Source: a virus
Virus record (IMG/VR): IMGVR_UViG_3300032093_000021
Span: 1 to 64,000 of that record
Direction: 5' to 3' (one strand)
Length of the DNA: 64,000 nucleotides
The notes beneath the pieces are model-generated. The model did no database searches. It saw only the letters and a program-made list of their open reading frames with translations, and was not told the origin of the DNA. Position numbers and translations under genes: made by a program. Shown in pieces: positions 2,966 through 64,000 of this stretch (the first letter of the stretch is position 1; each line of letters opens with the position of its first letter).

Positions 2966-4090
2966 TTAATTTGAGAGTGGTATTTTAATTGTTGGATGAC
3001 TTTGATAATTTTCAATTACAAAATCAGTATTATCTAAATGAGTTATAAGTGATAGATCTTCAGATAAGGTTCTATAGAACTCATCTGTCTTCATATGTTT
3101 AAGAGTTGGTAGTTTATATGGTTTTCTTGTTATCTGTTCTTTAACACCATCAATTTGATTATTATAGATATGACAATCACCCATATTTGTAATCAATTCA
3201 TCAGGAACCATATTAACCATTTTCGCAATAATCTCTAACAATAAAGCGTAAGATGCAATGTTAAACGGTGTTCCTAATGGGACATCTTGACTTCTGGCAT
3301 TATACATTAGAGAAATTGCTCGCTGTGGCCCATTTTTGAGTTTTTCTTCTAATGTTAATGTGTCAAAATCATTCAAATCCTTTTTAGTGGGAATCAAGTT
3401 AATTTTCTCATCCATACTCAACTCTCTTGTATAAACTTGGAATCCATAATGACAAGGTGGTAAAACCATTTGATCCAACTCACCTACATTCCAAGCATTA
3501 ACCATCAACCTACGACTATCAGGATTTGTTTTGAGTTCGGAGATTAGGTTTGCGATTTGGTCAATACCCGTTCTATATAAATTTTGATTCCATTTCTCAA
3601 AATTATCTGCATCTTCTTTTGTTAATTTCCATTTACCGTTCCAGTCTCTCCACTGCCTACCATATATCGGTCCTAGTTCACCCCACTTATTTGCAAACTC
3701 ATTATCGGTTTTGATTTTGTTGATGAATTCTTCTTTTGATTCTTTACTATTTAATAACTGTGTAACAGCCCGTTCCTTTGCTTCTGCAGGTTCAATTTTA
3801 ATGGTTTCGTTTAAGTATCTCTTATATGCATCACCATCCCAAATATGACAATCATTGTCTACAAGATATTTGATATTTGTATCACCACGTAGAAACCAAA
3901 GCAACTCAGTTATGATACCTTTGGTATACATTTTCTTTGTAGTTAATAATGGGAATCCTTCTTCCATTCGGTGAACTATTTTCCAACCGAATACAGATCT
4001 AGTACCTGTTTCAGTTCTATCACTCTTATTATTACCAAACACTAATATGTGTTCAAGTAGTTCTTTGTATTGTCTGTCTATATTATTCAT
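2966..4090 (-). CDS. thyA: Thymidylate synthase
   Basis: DRTETGT, ELLWFLRG, LGPIYG, RRLMVNAWN, LPPCH, RSQDVPLGTPFNIASY, GDCHIY. Confidence 0.97.
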   Translation of the reverse strand: MNNIDRQYKELLEHILVFGNNKSDRTETGTRSVFGWKIVHRMEEGFPLLTTKKMYTKGIITELLWFLRGDTNIKYLVDNDCHIWDGDAYKRYLNETIKIEPAEAKERAVTQLLNSKESKEEFINKIKTDNEFANKWGELGPIYGRQWRDWNGKWKLTKEDADNFEKWNQNLYRTGIDQIANLISELKTNPDSRRLMVNAWNVGELDQMVLPPCHYGFQVYTRELSMDEKINLIPTKKDLNDFDTLTLEEKLKNGPQRAISLMYNARSQDVPLGTPFNIASYALLLEIIAKMVNMVPDELITNMGDCHIYNNQIDGVKEQITRKPYKLPTLKHMKTDEFYRTLSEDLSLITHLDNTDFVIENYQSHPTIKIPLSN

Positions 4091-8470: not shown

Positions 8471-9582
8471 AAATTAACTATTTTTAAGGTTTTGGTGTAA
8501 AATGTATATCTGTAGTAAATTGTTATATTCAAATAATAAAACCCTTTTGGAAGTTGGTAAACCTTATTTCCCCTAAAAATCATTCTTTCAATACCTATCG
8601 ATCTTCCGTCAGAAAGATAAGAAGAAATGTTCACTTGTGTTTCTAAATCGGTATTGAATACTATTGTATTTCCAAAAATTTTATATTGAAACCCGGATGG
8701 TAAACCTGGTCTGATGGTTGTATTATTTTGCAGATCTAAAGTCACATCACATATACAACCTTTTCTAATTGTATCTTGAATCCATATTTGGTTATTAGGG
8801 TTATTGAAAGCCCCGGGTGTTGCTGAAGCCGCAGAACCTGTAATCCAATTAGTAGAGGTATAATACCCACTTAAATCAAGTCCATTGTATGCATAGAATG
8901 TGTTAGCACCATTAGTTGTTGCAACTAAAGGAGCCAAAGAGTTTCCAACCATATTAGCCGCAGCTCCACAAGATGATAAAGTGGTCCTACCGTAAACTAC
9001 CGCATGGACTAAATTGAATGAAGGATCTCTTAATTGTAAACCATCACCGGCATTAGCAGCATTTATTGTATTCCAATTACCAACACCATATGTCAAACAA
9101 TCTGAATATGATAACTTTGTGCTACAACTCAAAGCGGCAGGTGCCGTAGTGCATGATTCCAAAGAAACATGATTTGCAGGTAAAACATAAACACAATCAT
9201 TATTAAAATCGTATGGATCATCAGGAGGAATTGATAAATCACGATCCAAATCATTATAGATTATAATAATAGCACCCACAGGTAATCTTGTCCAAGGCGC
9301 AACATTTTTGAATCTTAAATGACCATTTGCAAACCCACTCCCGAAATTGTTACTCGAAGGTGAAAAGGTTCCATCATTATCATCAATTACCCAACCCGCA
9401 CAATTTAATGAATTGGTAAAACAACCACGAAGGCTTGCCGCAGTTGGTGTAGTTGGAGCTACAAGTAATTCAATCCACTCTTTAGATCCTGATGGACCAT
9501 TTGAAAACTCATTAATTCTTAGCGTCTGTCCAAATATTGTTAAACACAGTATTTGAAATAATATTATTAATTTTAACTTCAT
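8467..9582 (-). CDS. Secreted lamin-tail-domain protein with T9SS-like tail
   Basis: Signal peptide; LRINEF...EWIELL...ATPG; C-terminal LPKGFYYL...TLKIV. Confidence 0.7.
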   Translation of the reverse strand: MKLKLIILFQILCLTIFGQTLRINEFSNGPSGSKEWIELLVAPTTPTAASLRGCFTNSLNCAGWVIDDNDGTFSPSSNNFGSGFANGHLRFKNVAPWTRLPVGAIIIIYNDLDRDLSIPPDDPYDFNNDCVYVLPANHVSLESCTTAPAALSCSTKLSYSDCLTYGVGNWNTINAANAGDGLQLRDPSFNLVHAVVYGRTTLSSCGAAANMVGNSLAPLVATTNGANTFYAYNGLDLSGYYTSTNWITGSAASATPGAFNNPNNQIWIQDTIRKGCICDVTLDLQNNTTIRPGLPSGFQYKIFGNTIVFNTDLETQVNISSYLSDGRSIGIERMIFRGNKVYQLPKGFYYLNITIYYRYTFYTKTLKIVNL

Positions 9583-9732
9583 ACATCATTGGTCATAAGG
9601 ATCCGGACTACAAATATGTTTTCTCCACCATCTACCAAAAACTGTATTCTCATTTTTAGAAACAATTTTCTCCCCTATGATTAAACCAAAAAGATAAATA
9701 AAAATAATAGAAATAATAAACAAAATCATAAA

Positions 9733-10368
9733 TTAATTTTTGAAAATTTTGAAAGTATAATAATCATAAAACTTATTTTGAACATAAACCCTAACATAGT
9801 TCAACCCTTTTGACAAAAAAAGATTTGTATTCAAGGAAAGATTTTTTTTAACTTGACTGAATTGTGAATATGTTAATCTTCCATTATTATCAAAAACGGA
9901 TATATTTACATTTTCCGTCAAAGATCCAAAATCAAAATTCAAAAAACCTTTATCAAAAAAAACTTTATATTGTTGATTTTCTCTTATAAAAACTATTCCC
10001 GGTCTATTTTCCAACGATAGAACACCCAATGTTATAACAACCTCCAAAAACCCCATATCAGGATTAGAAACACAAGATGTCTCAGCTTTCGCCCTGAACT
10101 TAATTTCAGTAAGTGGTAATCTTGGAACCAAAACCCAAATAGAGTCATTAGGTCCAATATTGTGATCAATAGCGGGATCGGTGTCCGCTTTGGTCCTTAT
10201 CACAACCGGACAAGATTGTTTATTTTTAACTGTGAAAATGTAATTCCCATTGTCATACCCGACAACACGAATAAGAACAACATTGTTTTCAAAGAATTGA
10301 CCCCCATTTTGAGAAAATCCAAAAGATGAAAGTAAAGATAAGATGACGGATAAAAATACCTTTTTCAT
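9733..10368 (-). CDS. Secreted protein with T9SS-like sorting tail
   Basis: Signal peptide ending FS-Q; VFDNNGRL...LSKGLNYVRV...FKIFKN. Confidence 0.7.
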   Translation of the reverse strand: MKKVFLSVILSLLSSFGFSQNGGQFFENNVVLIRVVGYDNGNYIFTVKNKQSCPVVIRTKADTDPAIDHNIGPNDSIWVLVPRLPLTEIKFRAKAETSCVSNPDMGFLEVVITLGVLSLENRPGIVFIRENQQYKVFFDKGFLNFDFGSLTENVNISVFDNNGRLTYSQFSQVKKNLSLNTNLFLSKGLNYVRVYVQNKFYDYYTFKIFKN

Positions 10369-15866: not shown

Positions 15867-16718
15867 TCATTTTAATTCTAATTCAATTTGTTTTTTCTTA
15901 TCAACAAACGCCTGAACTCGTTGTCTTGCTATGTCAGTATAGTTTCGAGATAGTTCAATACCGATCCACCTTCTCCCCAATATCTCAGCCGCCACCAAAC
16001 TAGTTCCACTACCGGCAAAAGGATCCAAAACTATTTCATTCTTATATGTTAGGATCTTAATTGCCTTATCCGGGATATCCATTGAGAATGTTGCCTTGGT
16101 TAATGATTTGGTGTCGGCAAAGTATTCCCACCTCCCAAATACCAAATCCATAAACTCTTTCTTATCCTCCGGAGAATAAACCATTTTAGTTTTGATTGTT
16201 CCATCTTCACCTTCCACTTCTGTTGGAATACCGACCCACTGGGGTTCTCCTTTTTCTTTCTTAATTTTAACTTTCTTATATCCGAGTATCACACATTCTT
16301 TCGGGTTATAGATATAAGGTGAAGACGGACTCATCCAAGATCCCCAAGCTGTTTGTCTAACCCGGTGTGGTGAGTTTTCGGTAAGGTCTACTGTTCCAAA
16401 GTAGTTGAATCCTATCTCTTTCATAACTGCGTAGAACTCAGCATTAAATAAGATTCTTCCTCCCCGGTCCTGAACATTCATTTCAATGGGAACATTAACC
16501 GCAATTCTTCCATCATCTTTTAATACCCTCAACGATTCCTTCAACCACTTCCTAGTAAAATCCCAATACTCATCCATTGTTTTGGTATCATCATAGGTAT
16601 CGTAAGCAATTCCCGCGTTATAGGGTGGTGATGTTACAATAAGATCAATACTACCTTCAGGGAATGTTTTCATTACCTCAATACAATCTCCATTTATAAT
16701 TCTATTAGTTTGCAACAT
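15867..16718 (-). CDS. Orphan beta-class N4/N6 DNA methyltransferase
   Basis: TSPPY (motif IV) before DPFAGSGT (motif I). Confidence 0.92.
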   Translation of the reverse strand: MLQTNRIINGDCIEVMKTFPEGSIDLIVTSPPYNAGIAYDTYDDTKTMDEYWDFTRKWLKESLRVLKDDGRIAVNVPIEMNVQDRGGRILFNAEFYAVMKEIGFNYFGTVDLTENSPHRVRQTAWGSWMSPSSPYIYNPKECVILGYKKVKIKKEKGEPQWVGIPTEVEGEDGTIKTKMVYSPEDKKEFMDLVFGRWEYFADTKSLTKATFSMDIPDKAIKILTYKNEIVLDPFAGSGTSLVAAEILGRRWIGIELSRNYTDIARQRVQAFVDKKKQIELELK

Positions 16719-22339: not shown

Positions 22340-23179
22340 CTAAAAAAGTTTACTTTGCCCCATTTCTTTGTTTTTTTTCTTTTCTTTTTTTTCTTTATAA
22401 GTTTCTCTAACAATGTGTAAAGACATCTCATTTTTCATATCTGAAATTTCATCATCACTTAAGTTATCAATTCTATTTAAAGCGAAATCAATATATGACT
22501 TAGAAATATCAATACCGAAGAAATTGTGTCCTAAAAATTTACACGCAACTGCCGAAGTCCCACTACCCATATAAGGATCTATGATAAACTTATCCTTTTC
22601 ATCATCAAAAATTGAATATATACATCTTAATGGTAAATCCAAAGGAAATGGTGCCGGATGATTACCAACTCGTAGTTTACTCATTTCAGGTCTAAAATAC
22701 CAAACAGATGTTAAAAGCGCATGTTTTGACATTAATTCTTTACCATAATCTTTTTTATCTCTAGGTTTGTAAAGCCAATAAATTCTTTCGTCAACTTGCC
22801 AAAACCTCCACCCACGAATATTTGCTGCTAGTTTTCTATCCCAAATTATTTCTTGTTTTGTAGTCCAGTTAGTTTTTGAAATCCACTCCATGGGATGGAT
22901 CATTACTCCTTTTTCCCACCTAATTTTATGGTTATAAAAAAAAGATCCTCCCGGTTTTATAGTTCTATATAATTGATTAAGTATTTCAATTTGTTGGTTT
23001 TGATACACATCTTCATCTAATGAATCATCAATGTCTGAATAATCAATATCTTTAACCAAAATACCACTTTTATTTTTTTTCTTGTTGTAAGGGGGAGATG
23101 TGACTCCCATATCAAAAGTATCATCTGATATTTTTGAGAGCACTTCCAAAACATCGCCATTCCATATTTCATTAATCAT
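22340..23179 (-). CDS. Beta-class N4/N6 DNA methyltransferase
   Basis: TSPPY, HPAPFP, DPYMGSGT. Confidence 0.92.
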   Translation of the reverse strand: MINEIWNGDVLEVLSKISDDTFDMGVTSPPYNKKKNKSGILVKDIDYSDIDDSLDEDVYQNQQIEILNQLYRTIKPGGSFFYNHKIRWEKGVMIHPMEWISKTNWTTKQEIIWDRKLAANIRGWRFWQVDERIYWLYKPRDKKDYGKELMSKHALLTSVWYFRPEMSKLRVGNHPAPFPLDLPLRCIYSIFDDEKDKFIIDPYMGSGTSAVACKFLGHNFFGIDISKSYIDFALNRIDNLSDDEISDMKNEMSLHIVRETYKEKKEKKKNKEMGQSKLF

Positions 23180-28209: not shown

Positions 28210-29049
28210 CTAATAATTCAATATCAATAATTCTTCACCCATATTTTGTTTTGTACCTTTTTTAGCCGCAGCGGCTTTTGCAAATGATTTTTTCTCCCAT
28301 CTATATTGATTTTCAGGAAACCAAGTGTGTAATAAATCAAAATCATAATAAGACAATGAAAACTTACCTTTAACATTTTGTAACGTATTTGCAAGTCTTT
28401 CGTGGTCCTGTCTGTCAAAATCGTGGTTTGAGTAGTAGTTTTCAGTTTTCCAATATGGAGGATCTAAGTAAATATATGTATTTTCTGAGTCATATTTTTC
28501 TATTACATCCTGAAAATCCATATTTTCTACGTCAGTTATCTTTAGGAAATGTTCCACCCAATCCGGTTTACTTAACTTGTCTCTAAATGCTAGATATTTT
28601 GACCTATACTTACCCTTCAAATCGATAAAAGAAGACGTTTCAGGTTTACTACCGCTGAAGACCTGAGTGACCACATACACATATTTAGCGGCAGTCATAT
28701 AATCAGGTGTATTAGTTGTAAATCCTGAATTAAATATCTCTCTTTGGAAGTCCTCAAATCTAGTTCTAAATATGGGATCTGTATTATCAACCCCCAATTG
28801 CTGAACCGGGATAATATCTAAATGTCTCTGTAGTTCAGACGGATTCTGAACACACTTAAATAAATTGTAATTAAGGGGATTAAAGTCGTTATAAACGACC
28901 TTCTTTAGATTTGGATACTTAGATAGGTCCATATTAAAAAAACACCAGAACATACCTCCAAAGGTCTCTACATACGTTTCCATATCTTTGAGGTAATATG
29001 GGACTATCCACTTACCAATTTTACTTTTACCACCAATATAACTCAACAT
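28210..29049 (-). CDS. Dam-like (D12 class) adenine methyltransferase
   Basis: YIGGKS, YVETFGG, VYND, YLDPPY. Confidence 0.9.
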   Translation of the reverse strand: MLSYIGGKSKIGKWIVPYYLKDMETYVETFGGMFWCFFNMDLSKYPNLKKVVYNDFNPLNYNLFKCVQNPSELQRHLDIIPVQQLGVDNTDPIFRTRFEDFQREIFNSGFTTNTPDYMTAAKYVYVVTQVFSGSKPETSSFIDLKGKYRSKYLAFRDKLSKPDWVEHFLKITDVENMDFQDVIEKYDSENTYIYLDPPYWKTENYYSNHDFDRQDHERLANTLQNVKGKFSLSYYDFDLLHTWFPENQYRWEKKSFAKAAAAKKGTKQNMGEELLILNY

Positions 29050-54371: not shown

Positions 54372-56153
54372 TTATATTAAACCATTATCTATTATTATCC
54401 AATTATTAGGTGCCGAAGTTAAAATACTTTTAGCAGAACTTGCGATGTTGTTGTAGTTCTGTGAAACATTCATCTGAACATTCGGTTTCAGAGTCAATAC
54501 TGACCAATCTATTAACAGATTATTGTAGTTTGTTATACTAAAACTACTTCCTGATAAAAATCCACTCAAGTTTGTAACATTTATTGGTTTCCATGTTTGT
54601 AAAGTTTGGTTAAAATTTGAAGAATTTCTAAACATATCCTCCATTGTAGTTACACCTGTGACATTCCAAGTTGATAGATCTTTGTTAAATTGTGAAGCTC
54701 CTTCAAACATACTTTCCATAGTCGTAACTTTAGATACATCCCACGATCCAATTGGTTGATTAAATGAAACAGCATTTGTAAATACCCCTTCCATCAAAGT
54801 GACAGCACTTGTAGTCCAACCACTTATATTGGGGGATCCTAAATTATTAAAGATTGATGCCCCATTAAACATATTTCTGAATGTTTTAACATTACTTACA
54901 TCCCAATTACTCAAATCCTGATTAAACATAACCGCACTTCCAAACATTGATCTCAAACCTTGACTGAAACCACAACAAGTATTCACTTTTTTTACATTCC
55001 AATTACCTAATGGTTGATTAAATTTGTCTGTTGAGAAAAACATATGTCCCATCTCTTCAGCCGATGAAGTATTCCAATTATTTATAGTTGGAGACGAATT
55101 ATTGTTGAATTTTTTTGCATCATGGAACATATAACCAAAGAATTTTACTTTTGAAACATTCCATTTTCCAATGTTCCTATTAAAGTTATATGCATTATAA
55201 AACATATAATTCATTTTAGTTACACTTGATGTGTCCCAATCATTTATTGTATCACTTCCGTTATTGTCAAAATTTGTTGCCCCTGCAAACATAAATTGCA
55301 TATCAGCACAAAATAATGTTTTCCAATTCCCTATATTTTTATTAAATTGAGTTGCACTTTCAAACATGCTTTGCATCGTGGTTACATTGTTTGTTGTCCA
55401 ACCACTTAAGTCTGAATTGAAAACAGTTGCATTTTTGAAGGTATAACTCATGTTATTTACCTTTGAAGTGTCCCATTGGCTTACCTTATTTATACTTGAT
55501 AGACTTGTACACGACTCAAATAAACTTGAAAACGATGTCATACCTGAAGTGTTTAGGGTATCAACAACATTCGGAATATTGAGATTGGTACAAGCCGAAA
55601 AATGCCCTGTTGAATTCCCGAGCTGTATGGGTCCCCACTTTAAAATTTCCAATAATTTTAATCTATCGGAAGGATCTATTTTATAGTTCCACCCTATAAA
55701 GTTACCCGGAAAACTATAAATTTTTATTTCATATACACCAGTTGATGCATAGGTATGTGTTTTTTTAACATCATTCCAATTTTTTATATTATCCCAAGGC
55801 CCCCCATCTCCCCAATCAACATATATGTCGTAAATACCTGAAGATATTAGTGGTAATTTCACTTGATTATTACTGGTTGTTCCGGGTTTGGTTGTATCTA
55901 TTTTGAAATGAAAATATTGCGGTTCTTCAATTTCTATTTCAGCGCATAGATTGTTATTGTCTACAATTTTGAGTTTTGTGGTGCCAATAGGTATATTATT
56001 TAAGATCAATGGACAATTTGGTAACGTCAATTGAGAAACAGTCGTTGAGGTTATTTCAGAGATATAATAATCCTGATTGCCATAAATGACTATAGGATCT
56101 ACCAAGTTATTGGCACCAATATCATCCAAACAAATTGCAACTTCAAATGTCAT
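54372..56153 (-). CDS. BspA/DUF285-repeat surface or tail protein
   Basis: VDWGDG PKD-like unit and many W.TS.V..M..MF...FN repeats. Confidence 0.88.
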   Translation of the reverse strand: MTFEVAICLDDIGANNLVDPIVIYGNQDYYISEITSTTVSQLTLPNCPLILNNIPIGTTKLKIVDNNNLCAEIEIEEPQYFHFKIDTTKPGTTSNNQVKLPLISSGIYDIYVDWGDGGPWDNIKNWNDVKKTHTYASTGVYEIKIYSFPGNFIGWNYKIDPSDRLKLLEILKWGPIQLGNSTGHFSACTNLNIPNVVDTLNTSGMTSFSSLFESCTSLSSINKVSQWDTSKVNNMSYTFKNATVFNSDLSGWTTNNVTTMQSMFESATQFNKNIGNWKTLFCADMQFMFAGATNFDNNGSDTINDWDTSSVTKMNYMFYNAYNFNRNIGKWNVSKVKFFGYMFHDAKKFNNNSSPTINNWNTSSAEEMGHMFFSTDKFNQPLGNWNVKKVNTCCGFSQGLRSMFGSAVMFNQDLSNWDVSNVKTFRNMFNGASIFNNLGSPNISGWTTSAVTLMEGVFTNAVSFNQPIGSWDVSKVTTMESMFEGASQFNKDLSTWNVTGVTTMEDMFRNSSNFNQTLQTWKPINVTNLSGFLSGSSFSITNYNNLLIDWSVLTLKPNVQMNVSQNYNNIASSAKSILTSAPNNWIIIDNGLI

Positions 56154-56155
56154 AT

Positions 56156-57523
56156 TTATCCTATTTTGAAAACATATCCGTTTATTCCTGTTGAATTATT
56201 ACAACTCAAATGTTTCTTTTGGTTGATTGATGCTTTGAAGTCGCAATTCACAATTTCAATAATAGTACAAAATTCTTTCTTAATGAAATCTCCATACTTG
56301 TCAATTACTTCAATCAAATATGTCCCTTCAGGTTGTCCGACCAAGGTTTTTTGGTTTACTTTGTCTCCTGATGGTGTTGTCCAAGTGTAACTATAAGGCT
56401 GTGTCCCACCTGTGACATTTACTGATAATACACCTAAAGTTGTGCTTGTTTGGTTAATAACATTACAACTAATCCCCATTTCAAGAATTGTTATAATTTC
56501 ACACCCTGTTGCTGTAGATCCTGGTGGTATTGGAGATGGTGCTGATGAGCAATCTTGACACTCCAAATCATTACAATCTGATGTGATTATAACACCACCT
56601 ATGTCATTTAGGTTAATTACCTTTGTTTGTGGTGATGGTTCGGGTATAACAGTATAACAGAAATTAGATGGATTTATACTTAAAGTAAATCCAATATTAT
56701 ATTTGGTTCCTGATACTAATTTATATATTAAATTATCACAACAACCTGAAACATAATTACTTTTTGGAATAACAGGGATAACTGGATTACAGACTGAGTT
56801 ATTACATCCGTTCGCCAAAATACTGCCGGCGGTTGCAATGGATGGAGATGGTGAATCAGCCGCTATTAGAGAATAACATTGTCCACTCAATAAAACAGTG
56901 TCACCAATTTTATAAACATTAGATTCCGGTATACTAAGTATAACAATATCATTTGTCTTACAATTTTCAAATGGGTGATCTCCTTCCGCAACGTAACAAT
57001 TTGTATTATCTTGAAGACAAGAATCACAATCCTTAAATCCGTATTTACCTATTACATTATTTACCGATAAAGTCGGAACTGATACCACAACAGGTGTCAC
57101 AACTTCAAAGCATTGAGTAAATACATTAAAATTTTGATCGGTAACTTGTAAGTTCAATACCATTCCAACAGGTGCCGCAAAACCCAAAATTGTTGTTAAA
57201 TTATTAGCCTTAAAAATGGTTATTTCATCACCACAACATTTTTTCAAATATACACTCGTTGAACAAAAATCAACTTGATACAAAGCTGGATTTGGAGTAC
57301 TCAAAGAATATGGTCTGAATTTATTTTCAGAAGCAAGGTATCCTGATTCACCTAATGTTATTGTGCATGCCGAATTAGTAAAAGCTGTGCAGTTTACTAT
57401 CAAATTAGGATCGTCATCAAAATTACAACTCAAATAATAGTCATATGAATTAACCCAATAGTTAACGCACGCAACTTGTTGTGAATCTATGTCAAACCCT
57501 AACTTTGTTTTAATACACGACAT
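56156..57523 (-). CDS. Cys-rich tail-associated protein with SprB repeat
   Basis: CC..C..C modules; VTGGTQPYSYTW..GTY...VID. Confidence 0.6.
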   Translation of the reverse strand: MSCIKTKLGFDIDSQQVACVNYWVNSYDYYLSCNFDDDPNLIVNCTAFTNSACTITLGESGYLASENKFRPYSLSTPNPALYQVDFCSTSVYLKKCCGDEITIFKANNLTTILGFAAPVGMVLNLQVTDQNFNVFTQCFEVVTPVVVSVPTLSVNNVIGKYGFKDCDSCLQDNTNCYVAEGDHPFENCKTNDIVILSIPESNVYKIGDTVLLSGQCYSLIAADSPSPSIATAGSILANGCNNSVCNPVIPVIPKSNYVSGCCDNLIYKLVSGTKYNIGFTLSINPSNFCYTVIPEPSPQTKVINLNDIGGVIITSDCNDLECQDCSSAPSPIPPGSTATGCEIITILEMGISCNVINQTSTTLGVLSVNVTGGTQPYSYTWTTPSGDKVNQKTLVGQPEGTYLIEVIDKYGDFIKKEFCTIIEIVNCDFKASINQKKHLSCNNSTGINGYVFKIG

Positions 57524-57744
57524 TATATGTTAACTTTGTTTTTTATTTCACACTCGTTATTATCAATCACTTTTATACCGACCTCAGTTAATGATAAATA
57601 GGGTGCTGGTACTAAAAATTGATATGGAATATTCACATTGTTTATAGTTGAAATGAAAATACAATTACCATATGTATTATCGCACAAATAGACATCGTAA
57701 GGTGATGATCCGCTTAAAGATGTTATGGTTATTAATTTTGACAT
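57523..57744 (-). CDS. Small structural protein
   Basis: SGSSPYDVY..KVIDNNEC; same style as neighbouring N-terminal domains. Confidence 0.55.
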   Translation of the reverse strand: MSKLITITSLSGSSPYDVYLCDNTYGNCIFISTINNVNIPYQFLVPAPYLSLTEVGIKVIDNNECEIKNKVNI

Positions 57745-57757
57745 ATTTTATAATTTT

Positions 57758-60700
57758 TTATACACAAGGTATACATGTTCCTCCGTAAGAGAAGAATCCA
57801 ACCGCATCTATTGTTCCATAGTTACAACTTGTGTTTTCTCCTAAACTCAAATAAGAGGTTCCATCAAATAGAGTCCCATTACTATTGTAATATGTTTCGC
57901 CAGGTTGTAAACCAGCAATTGGGGTGTAAGTATAAAGTGTTACAGTACCTGATCCACTATTTCCACAACCCGCAGTTGGGTTAATATAAGCAATGAAAGA
58001 AAATGATGGTAGATTGTTTTGTGTTGGTGTTTGTGTGGGAGTTGGCGTCGGTACCGGTACTGAACAACAAGGACCATAGATTAAGGATGAAATTGGTCCT
58101 GATACCGATCCTTTCAAAATGCAACCTGCAATAACATCAGGTCCTATTGACACTGACTGATTTTGTGGTGTTCCATCACAATCTATCCAAGATACCGTAC
58201 CGGGTGTATCTACATCAAAACTAGCACCATTAGCACAAGAACATGTAGTTGGTGTCGGTGTTTGTGTTGGAGTTTTTGTTTGAGTTGGAGTATTAGTAGG
58301 AGTTTTAGTATTAGTTGGAGTATTTGTTGGCGTTTGAGTATTAGTAGCGGTATTGGTAGGCGTATTACTATTAGTTGGCGTATTTGTTGGCGTTTGAGTA
58401 TTAGTAGCGGTATTGGTAGGCGTTTGAGTATTAGTAGCGGTATTGGTAGGCGTATTACTATTAGTTGGCGTATTAGTAGGAGTTTGGGTGCTTGTAGGTG
58501 TTAAGCTTGGACAAGGTCCTGAAATTGAATTTAATATTCCAAATGATCCGCTTGGTATCAAAACTTGTACCCATGTGTAAACACCTGAAACTACAGGAGA
58601 TATTGGGTTTTCATTATATTGATATAAAATTCCGGAACCTAAACTTGATCTTAATTCCCATCTATTATTTGATATTGACCAAAACACATTGAATGTAAAT
58701 ACGGATGATTGGTCTGTAAAAGTAAATGATTGTTTTCCATTTACTACAGATCCCGGACTCACATTAATTGATTGTGATCCAACAAAAGTCTCTGATGCGA
58801 TTTGGAAACAGATTCCGCCTAAAGTATTTGATGGAGTATTCGTTTGTGTTGGTGTAGGAGTGCTTGTTGGTGTGTTTGATGGATCAGGAGGACAAGACGA
58901 ACAATCTGTTCCAAGTATAGATACGACGGAATTCAATACCGCATTAGTTGATATTGATTTTTTGCCCTCATAATACACACAATATGATTGATTATCAATA
59001 ATCGCATTCATCGTGTATCCCGAATCTATAGTAATTCCTGAAATTTGAACTTCTTCCGCCACGTAGAAATAAGCATTTGTTGCACAATTTCTCAAAGAGT
59101 TGACCTGACTACATTCAAGTTTTTCATCAAAAATCTCATAATTAACAGAACCTGTAAAACACAAACCTCTATAGATGTTTGTTGGTGTTACTGATGGGGT
59201 TGGTGTTGGTGAGGCGGTTGGTAGAGTAGTTGCACTCAGCGTCATACCTATACCAAAGCATTTTTGTGTTATTGTGGGTGTTTGCGTATTTGTTGGTGTT
59301 GGAGTTTGGGTGGTGGTAGGTGTAGGAGTGTTAGATGGACCCGGGATATTACAATCAAATATCGCATCAAAGTCAAAAACATCACATGGATTAACCGGCG
59401 GAATTGGTGGACAAACTCCTTGTGTAAGTTCGTCACATAAATCAGGACAAGAACTATTACATGGTGTTTTTCCGAATAGTATACAACTTCCACCTAATGA
59501 GCTTGATAGACACCATTTATTGATACTATAATATATGTATCCTACTGACGTAGTTCCTCCGGTATAAAAGTCATAAGTTAAATATGTTCCGGCTATTACG
59601 TATTCACCATCAAACGGAGTTACACCATTTGTGTTCAAACAATAAACATTTGGACACTGATCAGTCGGACTTGGTGTTGGAGTATTAGTAGGTGTTTCTG
59701 TAGGAGTTGAAGTATTAGTGGGAGTATTGGTTGGAGTTTCAGTATTAGTGGGAGTTGGGGTGTTAGTTGGTGTGTTTGTTGATGTTTCGGTGTTTGTTTG
59801 AGTTTGAGTATTGGTTGGAGTGTTAGTTGATGTTTCGGTGTTTGTTTGAGTTTGAGTATTTGTTGGAGTATTAGTTGGGGTTTCTGTCGGAGTTTCAGTA
59901 TTAGTGGGAGTATTGGTTGGAGTTTCAGTATTAGTGGGAGTATTGGTTGGAGTTTCAGTATTAGTGGGAGTATTGGTTGGAGTTTCAGTATTAGTGGGTG
60001 TATTGGTTGGAGTTTCATCCGGGGTAGGTGTATTAGTTGGAGTTTCAGTATTAGTGGGAGTATTGGTTGGAGTTTCAGTATTAGTAGGGGTATTGGTTGG
60101 AGTTTCAGTATTAGTAGGGGTATTGGTTGGAGTTTCAGTGGGTGTATTTGTGGGCGTTTCTGTTGCAGTTGGAGTATTAGTCGGAGTTTCGGTTGGAGTT
60201 TCAGTATTAGTAGGTGTGTTAGTAGGTGTTGGTGTAGGACAAGTTATAGATTCACTTGTTAAGCAGTTAACACAAGATGAATAAAAAGTTGATGATATTG
60301 AGGTGTATAACGGTAACCCTATTTCATTAGTTATAACCTCAGCACAACCTGAAAATGATGTGGTATCCAAATAATAAACTTCTCCGACTGAAAGTTCTCC
60401 GGGTATGTTTGATACATTAAATTTATTATTTTCATCACAACAATCCTTAAACGAATAAAAAAAAGGTAGTGGCGATTCTGTTGGGGTTGGTGTGTTAGTA
60501 GGTGTATTAGTTGGAGTTTCAGTATTAGTAGGTGTGTTAGTAGGTGTCGGTGTAGGACACGGACCAATTGCCGAAAATAAAATATCCCCCGTAAGAGTGC
60601 TCGGAGATCCAAAGTCGTCGCAGTTACAAAAATACTGAGTTTCAAGTGGTCCAATCGTTAATAAACCTATAACGCCAGGATCACAACCATAATATTGACC

Positions 60701-61069
60701 TGTAGAAGTACTTCCGAGTTGATTTTGGGCAGAATATTCAGTACATGTGTTACATACCGGAGTTACTGTGGGTGTCGGTGTCGGAGTAGATGACGGACAA
60801 GAACCACCATCAGAGTAAAAACTTGCAGATGCGGTTGTCTTGAAATCGGATGTATAGTAATATATATCAGGAATTCCAAAGTCCGAGTCGTAACATTGGG
60901 ACGCTTGGTACAAACCTGCAGAATCAAAGTATTCTGTCACTAAAACTCCCAAACAATTATAATAATCAATATAAACACGTCCGTTTATAAAAGGAGGAGT
61001 TCCACTATTCAAGACCGCAGCGGATATATCTGCAGAATCTATAGAAATATTCAATATATTACATGCCAT
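57758..61069 (-). CDS. Mucin-like Thr/Pro-repeat, Cys-rich protein (probable fibre/adhesin)
   Basis: Long TPTNTETP tracts separating Cys-rich globular modules. Confidence 0.75.
59670..60240. repeat. Coding tandem repeats (30-bp [10 protein letters not shown] unit, degenerate)
   Basis: Repeated ggagtttcagtattagtgggagtattggtt; further tracts near 58250-58500 and 60480-60555. Confidence 0.9.
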
Positions 61070-61085
61070 AAATTAAACTTCAATA

Positions 61086-62066
61086 TTATAAATAATCCGA
61101 ATTTTGTTTTTGAAATAAAGATTTCAAAACTTCAGTATATTTTATTGTGGAACTTCTTTTATCAACGTATTCAAAAAAGTTTTCATTTTCCCTAAGTTTT
61201 TGAATAGGGTCACATTCAATAAATTCTCCTTTAAAAAATTTATTATTTTTTTCTATTTCAAGGACTCCAGCCATATGTAATATTGGTTTTTTATAGTAAA
61301 TATCAATATCATCTGTAGCCCACGAAAAATCCAAATCCTCAATTATTTTTGTTTCTTTTTTTAAACACCATAAATTCCAAATCAATGCCCACATTTCAGC
61401 AGTCCAAACTTGGATCCCTTTAGATACCGGATGAGTATTTGTAAACTCCACTAAATAGTTATACAGGCTATTTGAATCATTATATATTTTGAACCAATTT
61501 TTATAATTTGTTTTTTTTATTATATACTGACCACCTCCTGTATTATCATTATTTTTAATTACACAATCCAATCCGATACCAAAAATATCTATCATTCCAT
61601 TGATGAATTCATTACTTTTCAATCCATAATTTTTTGAATACAGGTCATCGCAATATTTAAGATAATCGTAAGATAAATAAGATTTTGTGTCGGCTAAATA
61701 ACATACATTGTCTTTCAGGTATTTTTCATAATTAGGTTTTTCCCGGAAAATAATGTCCGCATCATGTAAAAAAAAACACTCACCATATTTTGGAAAACTT
61801 TTTAACCATTGTGAAATCAAATATGGTTTTATACTTGGAATATAATTTTTAGTGTCTCGTTTATCTTCATAAAAATGAACATTGAACCCTTCTTTTCTTA
61901 ATTCCATAGCTCTTTTGGATGGTTTGTTTGTGTTTACCATACCAAAAATCATATGTATATCTGATGGGTTTACACCTTTTTCAACAAAATTATGACTATA
62001 AACTTCGCACTGCCAATGAAAATACTGAACATCAGGTTGTGCGGTTACATAAATTAATTTGGACAT
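61086..62066 (-). CDS. Glycosyltransferase resembling peptidyl-Ser galactosyltransferase / Hyp arabinosyltransferase
   Basis: YFHWQ, YIPSIKP..WL, LHDADIIF (DxD), GG.YI, WTAEMW. Confidence 0.7.
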   Translation of the reverse strand: MSKLIYVTAQPDVQYFHWQCEVYSHNFVEKGVNPSDIHMIFGMVNTNKPSKRAMELRKEGFNVHFYEDKRDTKNYIPSIKPYLISQWLKSFPKYGECFFLHDADIIFREKPNYEKYLKDNVCYLADTKSYLSYDYLKYCDDLYSKNYGLKSNEFINGMIDIFGIGLDCVIKNNDNTGGGQYIIKKTNYKNWFKIYNDSNSLYNYLVEFTNTHPVSKGIQVWTAEMWALIWNLWCLKKETKIIEDLDFSWATDDIDIYYKKPILHMAGVLEIEKNNKFFKGEFIECDPIQKLRENENFFEYVDKRSSTIKYTEVLKSLFQKQNSDYL

Positions 62067-62132
62067 ATAAACTAAAAAATAATATTTTATGTTTCAATCT
62101 AAATAGAATATTCTATGATATATTTATGATAT

Positions 62133-62312
62133 ATGAAACTTTTGAAAACTATACAAAAATTAGTTGAAGACGCAGAAAGAGATTATTATATCGCTTGTGA
62201 TAGGTGTGCTGATGAAAAAACAATTAAGAGATTAGAAAAAAATTATTTAGATAGTCTAAAACTGATGGAAAAAATAAATAAAATAGATACACCAAAAAAA
62301 GAAAATCTATAA
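62133..62312 (+). CDS. Small hypothetical protein (59 aa, absent from ORF track)
   Basis: MKLLKTIQKLVED...; TATTTATG 4 nt before ATG. Confidence 0.6.
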   Translation: MKLLKTIQKLVEDAERDYYIACDRCADEKTIKRLEKNYLDSLKLMEKINKIDTPKKENL

Positions 62313-64000
62313 TCCCCCATCTATTATAACCCAATTATAAGGACTTCCTGTAAGAGTGTTTCTACCTGATTGTCCTGCAACAGTATACTTTATAGTTCCA
62401 AAATTTATAGTCAATCCGGATTTTAATATCTTGCTTGACCAACTATTTAATAAACTATCATAATTTGCAGTTGAATAGTTTGAGAATGTTTTACCTGTCA
62501 TAAATCCTGTAAACGCAGTAACAGAAGATGCTGACCAACCACTTATAGGTTGGTTGAAAGCGATTGCATCATTGAACATATTAGTCATGTCCCTAACATT
62601 ACTAACATTCCAAGAATCTATTGGTTGATTGAATAATGAAGCACCCCTAAACATAGAAGTCATGTCTGTAACATTTGAGACGTTCCAACCGGATATTGAG
62701 GTAGATCCGGAATTGTTGAAAGATGAGTTTGATGCAAACATGGAATTCATGTTTGTTGCGGCAGATGTATTCCAACTACCGATATTTTGGTTAAACCCTG
62801 AACATGAAAGCATGGATGAAAAATTAGTCACCTTAGAAGTATTCCAGCTACCAATCGGTTGATTGAAACTTGTCCCTAAAAAAGTTGACCCAAAATCAAC
62901 AACGTTGCCCGTACTCCATCCACTTATTGAAGGGCTTCCTCCATTATTAAACGCAGATCCGAATGTTCTTCTAAAAAAAGTTGCCGCGGAAACATTCCAA
63001 GCTCCGATATCTTGATTGAATGGTGAACTGGCAAATGTGCTATGAAATCCATTACTGTTTGCAAACGAAGTTGTGACATTTCTTACATCCCAACTACCTA
63101 TGGGTTGATTAAAAGATGTTGCATAAAACATATGACCCATTTGAGTTGCCGCGGATGTTGTCCAACCACTAATAGAAGGGTTATTATTATTGTTAAATAA
63201 TGTTGCTTGTCCAAACATATAACCGAAAGCCTGAACTTTGGATACATTCCAAGAACCAACATTCCTATTGAATTTGACCGCATTGAAAAACATATAATTC
63301 ATGGCAGTGGCCGCAGAAGTAACCCAATTGTTAATTGAATTATTACCAGCATTATCAAAATTTGCAGCATTTTCAAACATCGTATTGAAGGTTGTGACTT
63401 TTGATGTATCCCAATTACCGATATTTTTATTAAACGTATTACAAGATGAAAACATTGATGCCATGGTTGTTACCGCGGATGTTGTCCATCCACTCAAATC
63501 GTCGTTAAAGAATGTACATCCTTGAAACATATTGCTCATGTTTGTAACATTTGAAGTGTTCCAAGAATTGACATTATTTATTGTAGTGAGACTTGTACAT
63601 GATCTAAACATTTGGGTCAGGTTTGTAGATCCACTTAAATTTATTACATCTGTTGTTCCTGTAAGTCTTAAATTGGAACAACCATAAAAGTAAGACCCCA
63701 AAAATGTCGCCCCTGTTGATTGAAGTTGTACAGGTCCCCACCTATTAACATGTAACATTTTTAACCTATCTCCCGAGTTATTAAATCTGAAACCTCTGAA
63801 ATTTCCCGGATAAGCGTATACCGTAACGTCATAAATTCCGGGAGTTGTATATGTATGTGCGGTTAATGGACTATTCCAAGTTGTTATATAATCTGTAGGG
63901 CCCGAATCTCCCCAATCAACTATCATATTATAAGTTCCCGCACTAACTAATGGAAGTGCAAACTGATTTGATGGCGAACTACCGACACTAGTTAATGTTG
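62307..64000 (-). CDS. BspA/DUF285-repeat protein, 5'-truncated by window edge
   Basis: Frame stays open past 63926 (..FALPLVSAGTYNMIVDWGD); paralogue of 54372..56153. Confidence 0.88.
   Translation of the reverse strand, partial: TLTSVGSSPSNQFALPLVSAGTYNMIVDWGDSGPTDYITTWNSPLTAHTYTTPGIYDVTVYAYPGNFRGFRFNNSGDRLKMLHVNRWGPVQLQSTGATFLGSYFYGCSNLRLTGTTDVINLSGSTNLTQMFRSCTSLTTINNVNSWNTSNVTNMSNMFQGCTFFNDDLSGWTTSAVTTMASMFSSCNTFNKNIGNWDTSKVTTFNTMFENAANFDNAGNNSINNWVTSAATAMNYMFFNAVKFNRNVGSWNVSKVQAFGYMFGQATLFNNNNNPSISGWTTSAATQMGHMFYATSFNQPIGSWDVRNVTTSFANSNGFHSTFASSPFNQDIGAWNVSAATFFRRTFGSAFNNGGSPSISGWSTGNVVDFGSTFLGTSFNQPIGSWNTSKVTNFSSMLSCSGFNQNIGSWNTSAATNMNSMFASNSSFNNSGSTSISGWNVSNVTDMTSMFRGASLFNQPIDSWNVSNVRDMTNMFNDAIAFNQPISGWSASSVTAFTGFMTGKTFSNYSTANYDSLLNSWSSKILKSGLTINFGTIKYTVAGQSGRNTLTGSPYNWVIIDGGL

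Follow-up and report, generated by a model that had tools for sequence, protein, structure and literature searches.

A candidate virion O-glycosylation enzyme linked to threonine-rich tracts of structural proteins in tailed phages

Introduction

The only described precedent that we could find in the literature for phages that glycosylate their own particles is the virion glycosylation of mycobacteriophages. In the passages of PMC12619734 and PMC12363180 that deal with it, glycosyltransferases encoded by phages Che8, Corndog and Myrna modify the phages' own virion proteins, and the glycans are carried by the C-termini of capsid and tail-tube subunits; the source study named there is Freeman et al. 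2023 (Cell Host Microbe 31:1216). Passages of PMC12894461 and PMC13313380 add that these transferases are accompanied by methyltransferase genes. Here a candidate system of a comparable kind is described in IMG/VR record IMGVR_UViG_3300032093_000021 (140,164 bp), of which the first 64 kb form the stretch analysed (the window, 64,000 nucleotides). Its central element is a gene for a 326-residue protein, followed on the same strand by a gene for a 1103-residue protein with long proline/threonine (PT) tracts, with 16 bp between the stop codon of the first open reading frame (ORF) and the ATG of the second:

61086..62066, minus strand: 326-residue glycosyltransferase, phrog_4417
57758..61069, minus strand: 1103-residue repeat protein of beads-on-a-string architecture, with Pro/Thr tracts between eight small globular modules rich in Cys

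An earlier reading of the window from sequence alone (the sequence-only reading) had pointed to this pair, and the ORFs confirm the motifs that it quoted as well as the 16-bp spacing. The genomic evidence favours, with a probability of roughly 0.7, that the 326-residue enzyme O-glycosylates threonine tracts of the phage's own virion or structural proteins. A sugar coating of the virus particle is the most likely outcome because, in many unrelated phages, the enzyme adjoins capsid or tail proteins that have threonine runs at their ends.

As in the mycobacteriophage system, the transferase gene lies within or beside virion structural genes, both here and in relatives, and the putative acceptors in the relatives of the 326-residue enzyme are also C-terminal tails of capsid and tail-tube proteins. 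The present system differs in its recognisable poly-Thr or PT tag, in its hosts (Bacillota, Bacteroidota and others) and in being known from genes alone; a further difference is that the tracts in this phage are long internal linkers of large modular proteins. A tblastn search of 50,697 phage records with the 326-residue protein gives no match to a Mycobacterium phage at E <= 1e-5, and at this level the enzyme therefore represents a different family. Neither this family nor the use of poly-Thr tails as glycosylation tags by phages is the subject of any paper found in a full-text literature search.

Fold and family of the 326-residue enzyme

The sequence-only reading took the 326-residue protein for a glycosyltransferase with a DxD motif, and the predicted structure bears this out. 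The AlphaFold (AF2) model, built with 57 relatives of 30–68% identity which also served for the conservation analysis, has a predicted local distance difference test score (pLDDT) of 97.3 and is globular throughout from residue 4. Comparison with solved structures yields 95 chains at Z >= 8, at the top of which stand exclusively GT-A glycosyltransferases, and a Foldseek search returns 310 matches at E <= 0.001 with GT-A enzymes leading. The closest solved fold is human glycogenin (Z 15.5, root-mean-square deviation 3.5, 229 aligned residues), followed by LgtC (Z 14.6), the Skp1 alpha-galactosyltransferase (14.5), the catalytic domain of UGGT (14.1), WbbM (14.0), GlyE (13.7) and LARGE1 (13.2). 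All of these are GT8-like retaining enzymes, and the GT8 members among the best matches score Z 13.4–15.5. The model thus identifies the 326-residue protein as a GT-A fold glycosyltransferase nearest to GT8-type retaining enzymes; by analogy with GT8 and the plant enzyme SGT1, it would use retaining chemistry and transfer an alpha-linked hexose. The sequence-only reading had looked to the structural matches for an indication of the acceptor. The best of them prove to be of the GT8 type and form a mix of protein- and polysaccharide-modifying enzymes, with GlyE, which decorates a pneumococcal serine-rich-repeat adhesin, on the protein side.

The likeness to GT8-type enzymes may extend to the order of conserved motifs, which in the catalytic series of GT8 is DxD ... 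N-S/A-G ... H-x-x-G-x-x-K. The 326-residue protein contains YFHWQ (residues 15–19), YIPSIKPYLISQWL (75–88; YIPSIKP...WL), HDADIIF with D102-x-D104, and WTAEMW (221–226). The DxD, which sits just past strand 97–100 in the model, follows a hydrophobic strand as in GT8-type enzymes, and an N-(S/T)-G-G segment, an H-x-x-G motif and a later lysine come after it in the same order. In the family of the 326-residue protein the conserved series reads D102/D104, the G177-G178-Q180 segment, H264, G267 and K279, a likeness at the level of order. The fold matches to GT8-type enzymes cover 210–245 residues at Z 13.7–15.5, and several of these enzymes act in the cytoplasm on proteins or protein-bound glycans. 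They differ from the 326-residue protein in sequence, with an identity of 6–11%, and the latter has no match to any Pfam model. The stretch from the histidine to the lysine is longer in the 326-residue protein than in GT8.

D102 and D104 show no variation in the 57 relatives and are conserved to at least 90% across 150 representatives. Further residues that are invariant in the 57 relatives are Y75, Y130, Y135, G178, W226, F247, H264, G267 and K279. To judge from motif order, H264 would be the counterpart of the GT8 histidine.

61755..61763, minus strand: codons of the DxD motif, D102-A-D104, after strand FFLH
61275..61277, minus strand: codon for H264 (within LHMAG), a putative third ligand of the metal (compare GT8 H-x-x-G...K)

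No hydrophobic segment is present in the 326-residue protein (maximum Kyte-Doolittle mean over 19 residues 1.15), and the enzyme should therefore work in the cytoplasm, the site of phage assembly. At the sequence level it is matched by phrog_4417 (function unknown) with E 5e-64. Pfam scans at E <= 0.1, including the GT8 profile PF01501, and NCBIfam scans give no match, and neither does a profile of the 57 relatives searched against the sequences in the Protein Data Bank (PDB). A PDB sequence match of the 326-residue protein alone to Aar2 is C-terminal, of a low-complexity-like character, and was rejected as spurious.

The sequence-only reading had also suggested, from the order of the motifs, a kinship with the plant enzymes HPAT (GT95) and SGT1 (GT96), which add the first sugar onto hydroxyl groups of Pro-rich repeats. 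For HPAT this finds a partial echo, in that the closest clusters with a name, both among predicted structures and in language-model features, are ones with the HPAT domain. A Chlorophyta cluster of predicted structures, 99% of whose members carry the HPAT domain PF23452, aligns with a template-modelling (TM) score of 0.73 over 294 residues, and in a comparison of language-model features 18 of the 30 nearest clusters belong to a set in which 10–58% of members carry PF23452. On the other side, the Pfam scan detects no PF23452 in the 326-residue protein, and only two of the 57 relatives give a weak match (E 0.09); a six-frame search of the whole record for PF23452 also returns nothing, a result of little weight because control genomes were blank as well. 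The plant and algal HPAT and SGT1 differ further in being Golgi membrane proteins that act on hydroxyproline (Hyp) or serine, whereas the 326-residue protein is soluble, without the type II membrane anchor of HPAT, and has threonine as its putative acceptor. Membership in GT95 or GT96 is not established: in view of the absent PF23452 match and the two weak ones among the relatives, it has its basis in the motif order.

The family is large, with more than 1000 clusters in a set of 5.8 billion proteins, 804 representatives at 50% clustering and 543 IMG/VR contigs; among isolates, 77 of the 50,697 phage records carry it (tblastn, E <= 1e-5). Its members are spread over phages of Bacillota and Bacteroidota, at least one phage labelled Actinomycetota, and contigs binned with Pseudomonadota and archaea.

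Linkage of the enzyme gene to threonine tracts

The main evidence for the favoured reading is the linkage of the enzyme gene to threonine-rich tracts. Gene positions are given relative to the enzyme gene, with positive numbers downstream. Of about 90 ORFs in the window, only the 1103-residue gene (+1) bears a tract. Tracts occur in only six ORFs of the whole 140-kb record, three of which (+1, -1 and -2) flank the enzyme gene, and a fourth is the tail sheath, a definite virion protein:

record 109377-112715: tail sheath, 1112 residues, phrog_23, with a Thr-tract insertion HTTTTTTAAPTPP at residues 284-307

This linkage recurs in related viral contigs. Across 80 loci from the 543 contigs, four further loci and the window, tracts are found in 69 of 84 genes at position +1 (82%), in 50 of 74 at +2 and in none (0%) at +7 to +10.

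In distant isolate lineages, where the enzyme is 25–38% identical, its gene lies within head or tail modules, immediately behind the gene for the major capsid or the major tail protein, and it belongs to late structural operons, including those of strictly lytic Herelleviridae. Tracts adjoin it in most of the 13 isolate-phage lineages whose loci were scanned, usually as C-terminal tails of capsid or tail-tube proteins. In Enterococcus phage phiFL1A the enzyme gene directly follows the major tail gene, and the tail protein as well as the putative capsid protein has a long poly-Thr tail at its end. In Lacticaseibacillus phage iLp84 the enzyme gene comes after those for a capsid protein that ends in TTTTTTTSK and for a small, mostly poly-Thr protein. 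Besides these two, poly-Thr C-terminal tails on major capsid, major tail or decoration proteins are present in the Staphylococcus Sextaecvirus vB-SscS-F1 and "Arcanobacterium" phage TPWB06, which closely resembles it, in Enterococcus phage VPE25, Clostridium phage phiCTP1, Lactococcus phages P1046 and bIL285 and the Herelleviridae Iacchus and LP65, as well as in Chryseobacterium phage MA9V-3. A first count of near and far genes in the 13 isolate loci gives tracts in 11 of 52 near genes versus 14 of 226 far genes (p = 0.002). This count is too low, because a greedy ORF picker dropped the poly-Thr ORFs of Iacchus, and most of the "far" tracts are in turn tails, on capsid or portal-region proteins of these phages.

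Bacterial genomes give a similar picture in a sample of 80 loci, comprising 38 with single-domain and 42 with fused forms of the enzyme. The tract density per 10 kb is 2.3 within 1.5 kb of the gene, 1.4 at 1.5–3 kb and 0.05–0.08 at 3–10 kb. A same-strand tract lies within 3 kb of 26 of the 38 single-domain genes versus 0 of the 42 fused ones (p = 3.5e-12), and of 23 out of 29 when only single-domain loci with full flanks are counted. The single-domain forms are prophage-like and come from Bacillaceae, Lacticaseibacillus, Listeria, Enterococcus, S. aureus and Flavobacteriales. The co-occurrence with PT-repeat genes that the sequence-only reading had proposed as a check is thus found for the single-domain homologues, whose linkage to genes with PT or poly-Thr stretches extends over many unrelated phages.

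The tails also co-vary with the enzyme gene. Among SPP1-type tail-tube proteins orthologous to phiFL1A gp50 (36–60% identity), poly-Thr tails occur only in the enzyme carriers phiFL1A and R3.3, where capsid and tail proteins alike bear them. Seven others have neither a Thr tail nor a nearby enzyme gene: two streptococcal prophages, phiJL-1, cIP1, Silenus, SPP1 and "Aeromonas" phage AS1, where for phiJL-1 and Silenus the absence of the gene refers to the surrounding 2.5 kb only. The capsid C-termini align as far as ...EGVVEATI, beyond which only phiFL1A goes on, with its Thr tail.

Several points weigh against virion glycosylation. Glycosylation of the tracts is putative, as is the presence of the 1103-residue protein in virions. 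LgtC and WbbM, among the best structural matches, act on polysaccharides, and PT tracts are also ordinary flexible linkers. The enzymes of the 80 viral loci are 51–60% identical, and since these loci are related, their synteny is largely inherited; the independent part of the evidence is supplied by the distant lineages of 25–38% identity. Phage Planchet has only a weak Thr-rich C-terminus, five genes distant, an ORF scan of the 521B locus shows no tract, and 12 of the 38 single-domain prophage loci, some on short contigs, are without a tract within 3 kb. Finally, Thr-rich neighbours are absent around the long fused forms of Chitinophaga, Sphingobacterium, Pedobacter and Acidimicrobiia, and the family is therefore not confined to a Thr-tract role.

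The adjacency could be meaningless, with the PT tracts as plain linkers, such as are common in secreted bacterial proteins, and an enzyme whose acceptor is a glycan of the host envelope (wall polysaccharide, teichoic acid, lipopolysaccharide or capsule), for instance to block superinfection or change a receptor. The fold matches to LgtC and WbbM would suit such a role, as would the fused Bacteroidota chromosomal relatives, which may well be polysaccharide enzymes. It is nevertheless quite improbable, since the Thr-tract linkage recurs at different module positions in lineages of 25–38% identity, among orthologous tail and capsid proteins the presence of a tail follows that of the gene, the gene is part of late structural operons also in strictly lytic Herelleviridae, and the 326-residue protein has no membrane segment.

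Some further observations concern these relatives. In TPWB06 (locus 9714-9920) and vB-SscS-F1 (9557-9919) a small, almost pure poly-Thr ORF is located at the 3' end of the major tail gene, which it overlaps in TPWB06; both may be frameshift extensions of the tail-tube protein rather than separate genes. The last 39 residues of the TPWB06 capsid protein (PQ358086.1) are identical to those of a Staphylococcus Sextaecvirus capsid protein, and "Aeromonas" phage AS1 (PV831789.1) has a tail-tube protein 53% identical to that of phiFL1A in a gene order like that of Lactobacillus Coetzeevirus phages; judged by these sequences, the host labels of TPWB06 and AS1 are doubtful. The chromosomal relatives in Chitinophaga, Sphingobacterium, Pedobacter and Mucilaginibacter are two-domain proteins of 450–700 residues without Thr-rich neighbours, some similar long metagenome representatives carry Glyco_transf_7C or GT2, and the chromosomal two-domain proteins probably use another acceptor.

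Proposed mechanism and alternatives

In the favoured mechanism, the 326-residue protein would be a soluble, cytoplasmic, metal-dependent GT-A glycosyltransferase that acts in late infection. It would transfer a sugar from a host nucleotide-sugar to threonine hydroxyls, the presumed acceptors, in the Pro/Thr tracts of the large proteins at +1, -1 and -2, and other tract-bearing virion proteins are probably modified as well. Modification would take place before or during assembly, and the product would coat exposed parts of the virion. Its partner in this phage is probably a second cluster, outside the window at 127–134 kb of the record, with a GT60-type enzyme, an FkbM-HtrL fusion and further ORFs:

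record 127126-134138: second cluster, PF11397 enzyme and FkbM-HtrL fusion with four unassigned ORFs between them
record 132870-134138: GT60-type enzyme, 422 residues, PF11397, E 1e-69
record 126035-127099: flank of the cluster, 354-residue PT-tract protein
record 134620-135840: flank of the cluster, virion structural protein, phrog_1645

The fusion of FkbM methyltransferase and HtrL in this cluster has 800 residues. GT60 enzymes are cytoplasmic or Golgi proteins that start O-glycans on Thr or Hyp of proteins; examples with PF11397 are Skp1 Gnt1 and the mucin-type initiating enzymes of Dictyostelium and Trypanosoma. The GT60 transferases are connected with the present system in two ways, by the member in the same record and by fusion to the family of the 326-residue enzyme elsewhere (P0158, P0161, P0191). 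They differ from it in that they represent another domain, encoded here by another gene, outside the window.

Within the same virion-glycosylation pathway, the 326-residue enzyme could therefore extend a glycan that the GT60-type enzyme has started: the latter would add a first N-acetylglucosamine to Thr and the former an alpha-hexose at a later step. Such a later step is what GlyE, on serine-rich-repeat proteins, and the Skp1 alpha-galactosyltransferase carry out, and several of the closest solved structures (GlyE, the Skp1 alpha-galactosyltransferase, XXYLT1 and LARGE1) are extending enzymes; the PF11397 enzyme of the record and the PF11397 fusions in other organisms fit as well. This division of labour is unlikely, however, in view of the distribution of the two genes. 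The GT60-type enzyme has homologues in no more than four jumbo phages, which belong to Xanthomonas and Stenotrophomonas, and, compared by organism, none of these is among the 77 isolate records with phrog_4417. In siphophages of 36–40 kb the family gene stands alone beside the tailed proteins, although other glycosyltransferases were not exhaustively searched for there. With GT60-type homologues restricted to the four jumbo phages, the 326-residue enzyme appears to work alone in small siphophages, which fits initiation. The presence of the family in these small phages without a GT60-type enzyme sets the odds that the 326-residue enzyme initiates the glycan rather than extends it at about even.

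Glycosyltransferases of phages are often taken as DNA-modifying, as a passage in PMC12619734 puts it, and the 326-residue enzyme might accordingly glycosylate DNA bases against restriction, like the T4 glucosyltransferases. The window contains a thymidylate-synthase homologue, whose PF00303 match is compatible with a true synthase as well as with a hydroxymethylase, and three DNA methyltransferase genes, these three lying within 13 kb:

2966-4090: thymidylate-synthase homologue, 374 residues, PF00303 full-length, E 3e-88
15867-16718: DNA methyltransferase, phrog_67
22340-23179: DNA methyltransferase, phrog_67
28210-29049: DNA methyltransferase, phrog_56

DNA as the substrate is nonetheless very improbable. 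In small temperate siphophages the homologues lie between capsid and tail genes and not among genes of nucleotide metabolism, and the fusion partners of the family are sugar-pathway enzymes, with no DNA-related domain found among them. In addition to PF11397, the partners in other organisms are O-FucT, an F5/8 type C lectin-like domain, Glyco_transf_7C (6 proteins), GT2 (3), GT25 (1) and GT1 (1); one protein of 1915 residues combines the family domain with GT4, FkbM methyltransferase and GT2, another one carries GT6, and a radical-SAM/SPASM domain is present in two fused proteins.

Glycosylation of virion threonine tracts remains the preferred explanation, and a wider interpretation may be ventured tentatively, at rather less than even odds: the enzyme family and a short, portable poly-Thr or PT "glyco-tag" would together form a widespread self-glycosylation module of tailed phages, in which any virion protein that is exposed could receive the tag and the enzyme is a distant relative of HPAT and SGT1. 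If this is true, that distant kinship would link phage and eukaryotic peptide O-glycosylation, and sugar-coated virions would extend well beyond mycobacteriophages, as a common feature in the phages of enterococci, staphylococci, lactobacilli, lactococci, Listeria, Bacillaceae and the Bacteroidota of soil and freshwater. The module would be recognisable by sequence alone, as a gene accompanied by threonine-rich tags. The question matters for the encounter of phage particles with antibodies, mucus, proteases and host surfaces, and for annotating hundreds of genes within structural modules that are now labelled "hypothetical". Site-directed protein glycosylation in the bacterial cytoplasm would gain a simple tool as well, in the form of a soluble enzyme and its short peptide tag. 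Since several cultured phages and prophages have the enzyme-tag pair, the question is directly testable.

The 1103-residue repeat protein

The 1103-residue protein is a candidate acceptor. It consists of 21.8% Thr and 11.6% Pro, with 45 Cys, and the word TPT occurs 74 times. The PT repeats comprise 361 residues, 170 of them Thr, in five tracts, and the exact word TPTNTETP is found 10 times. The five tracts are the following:

60473..60559, minus strand: PT tract, residues 171-199
59663..60247, minus strand: PT tract, residues 275-469, the largest, mostly a 10-residue unit
59261..59341, minus strand: PT tract, residues 577-603
58823..58879, minus strand: PT tract, residues 731-749
58235..58507, minus strand: PT tract, residues 855-945

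At the DNA level the tracts are encoded by tandem repeats with periods of 30, 60 and 90 at 59676-60214, 58266-58486 and 60480-60554. The protein is matched by phrog_15511 (function unknown) with E 2e-18, and scans against Pfam and NCBIfam give nothing. Of the globular modules, D4 (residues 470–576, with 10 conserved Cys) is found again in 54 related loci, often in an opposite-strand gene 6–7 kb away. Because D4 recurs elsewhere while the other modules are patchy, the sequences suggest domain shuffling between PT linkers. The model of D4, the best-conserved module, has a pLDDT of 82 and a best solved match of Z 4.4, and comparison of its model with BFVD yields uncharacterised phage proteins only, which is uninformative on the identity of a fibre. 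A role of the 1103-residue protein as a virion fibre is unproven and has its sole basis in the position of the gene downstream of a baseplate gene; a stiff fibre, protease resistance or a glycan shield are speculation. The 45 Cys are odd for a protein made in the cytoplasm.

Genomic setting

The record belongs to a tailed phage, with a CheckV completeness of 47% and a G+C content of about 31–35%. In addition to the thymidylate-synthase homologue and the three DNA methyltransferases, the window encodes a sigma factor, SbcCD, a primase, an exonuclease and a RuvC-like resolvase; the tail sheath, a baseplate wedge protein, a DNA polymerase, a ribonucleotide reductase and a DnaB-type helicase are encoded elsewhere in the record. 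SprB and DUF285 repeats point to a Bacteroidota host. In the relevant passage of PMC12619734, large aquatic Bacteroidota phages have several glycosyltransferases among their core genes; the record would fit this picture. A megablast search of phage records with 20 kb of the window returns no match.

The enzyme gene is located downstream of the baseplate wedge gene within a co-directional block of large adhesin-like proteins. No terminator-like hairpin or site is found across 56000-64000, which comprises 8 kb of co-directional large genes. A scan for sigma-70-like sites at 56–64 kb, to whose scope Bacteroidota promoters do not belong, gives 45 sites versus 37.9 +/- 6.1 in shuffled sequences, a frequency not above chance. 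An AT-rich gap of 240 bp (62067-62306) lies upstream of the enzyme gene, and the direct neighbours of the pair are:

62307..64000 in the window, with the full ORF to 64571, minus strand: upstream neighbour (-1), DUF285/BspA-type repeat protein, 754 residues
57523..57744, minus strand: ORF directly downstream of the 1103-residue gene, 73 residues, no family match in Pfam or PHROG

The -1 protein matches PF03382 with E 4e-98, and its N-terminal PT tract, at residues 55–181, is encoded just beyond the edge of the window. The closest relatives among the viral loci (4 loci) likewise have an ORF of 73 residues at +2.

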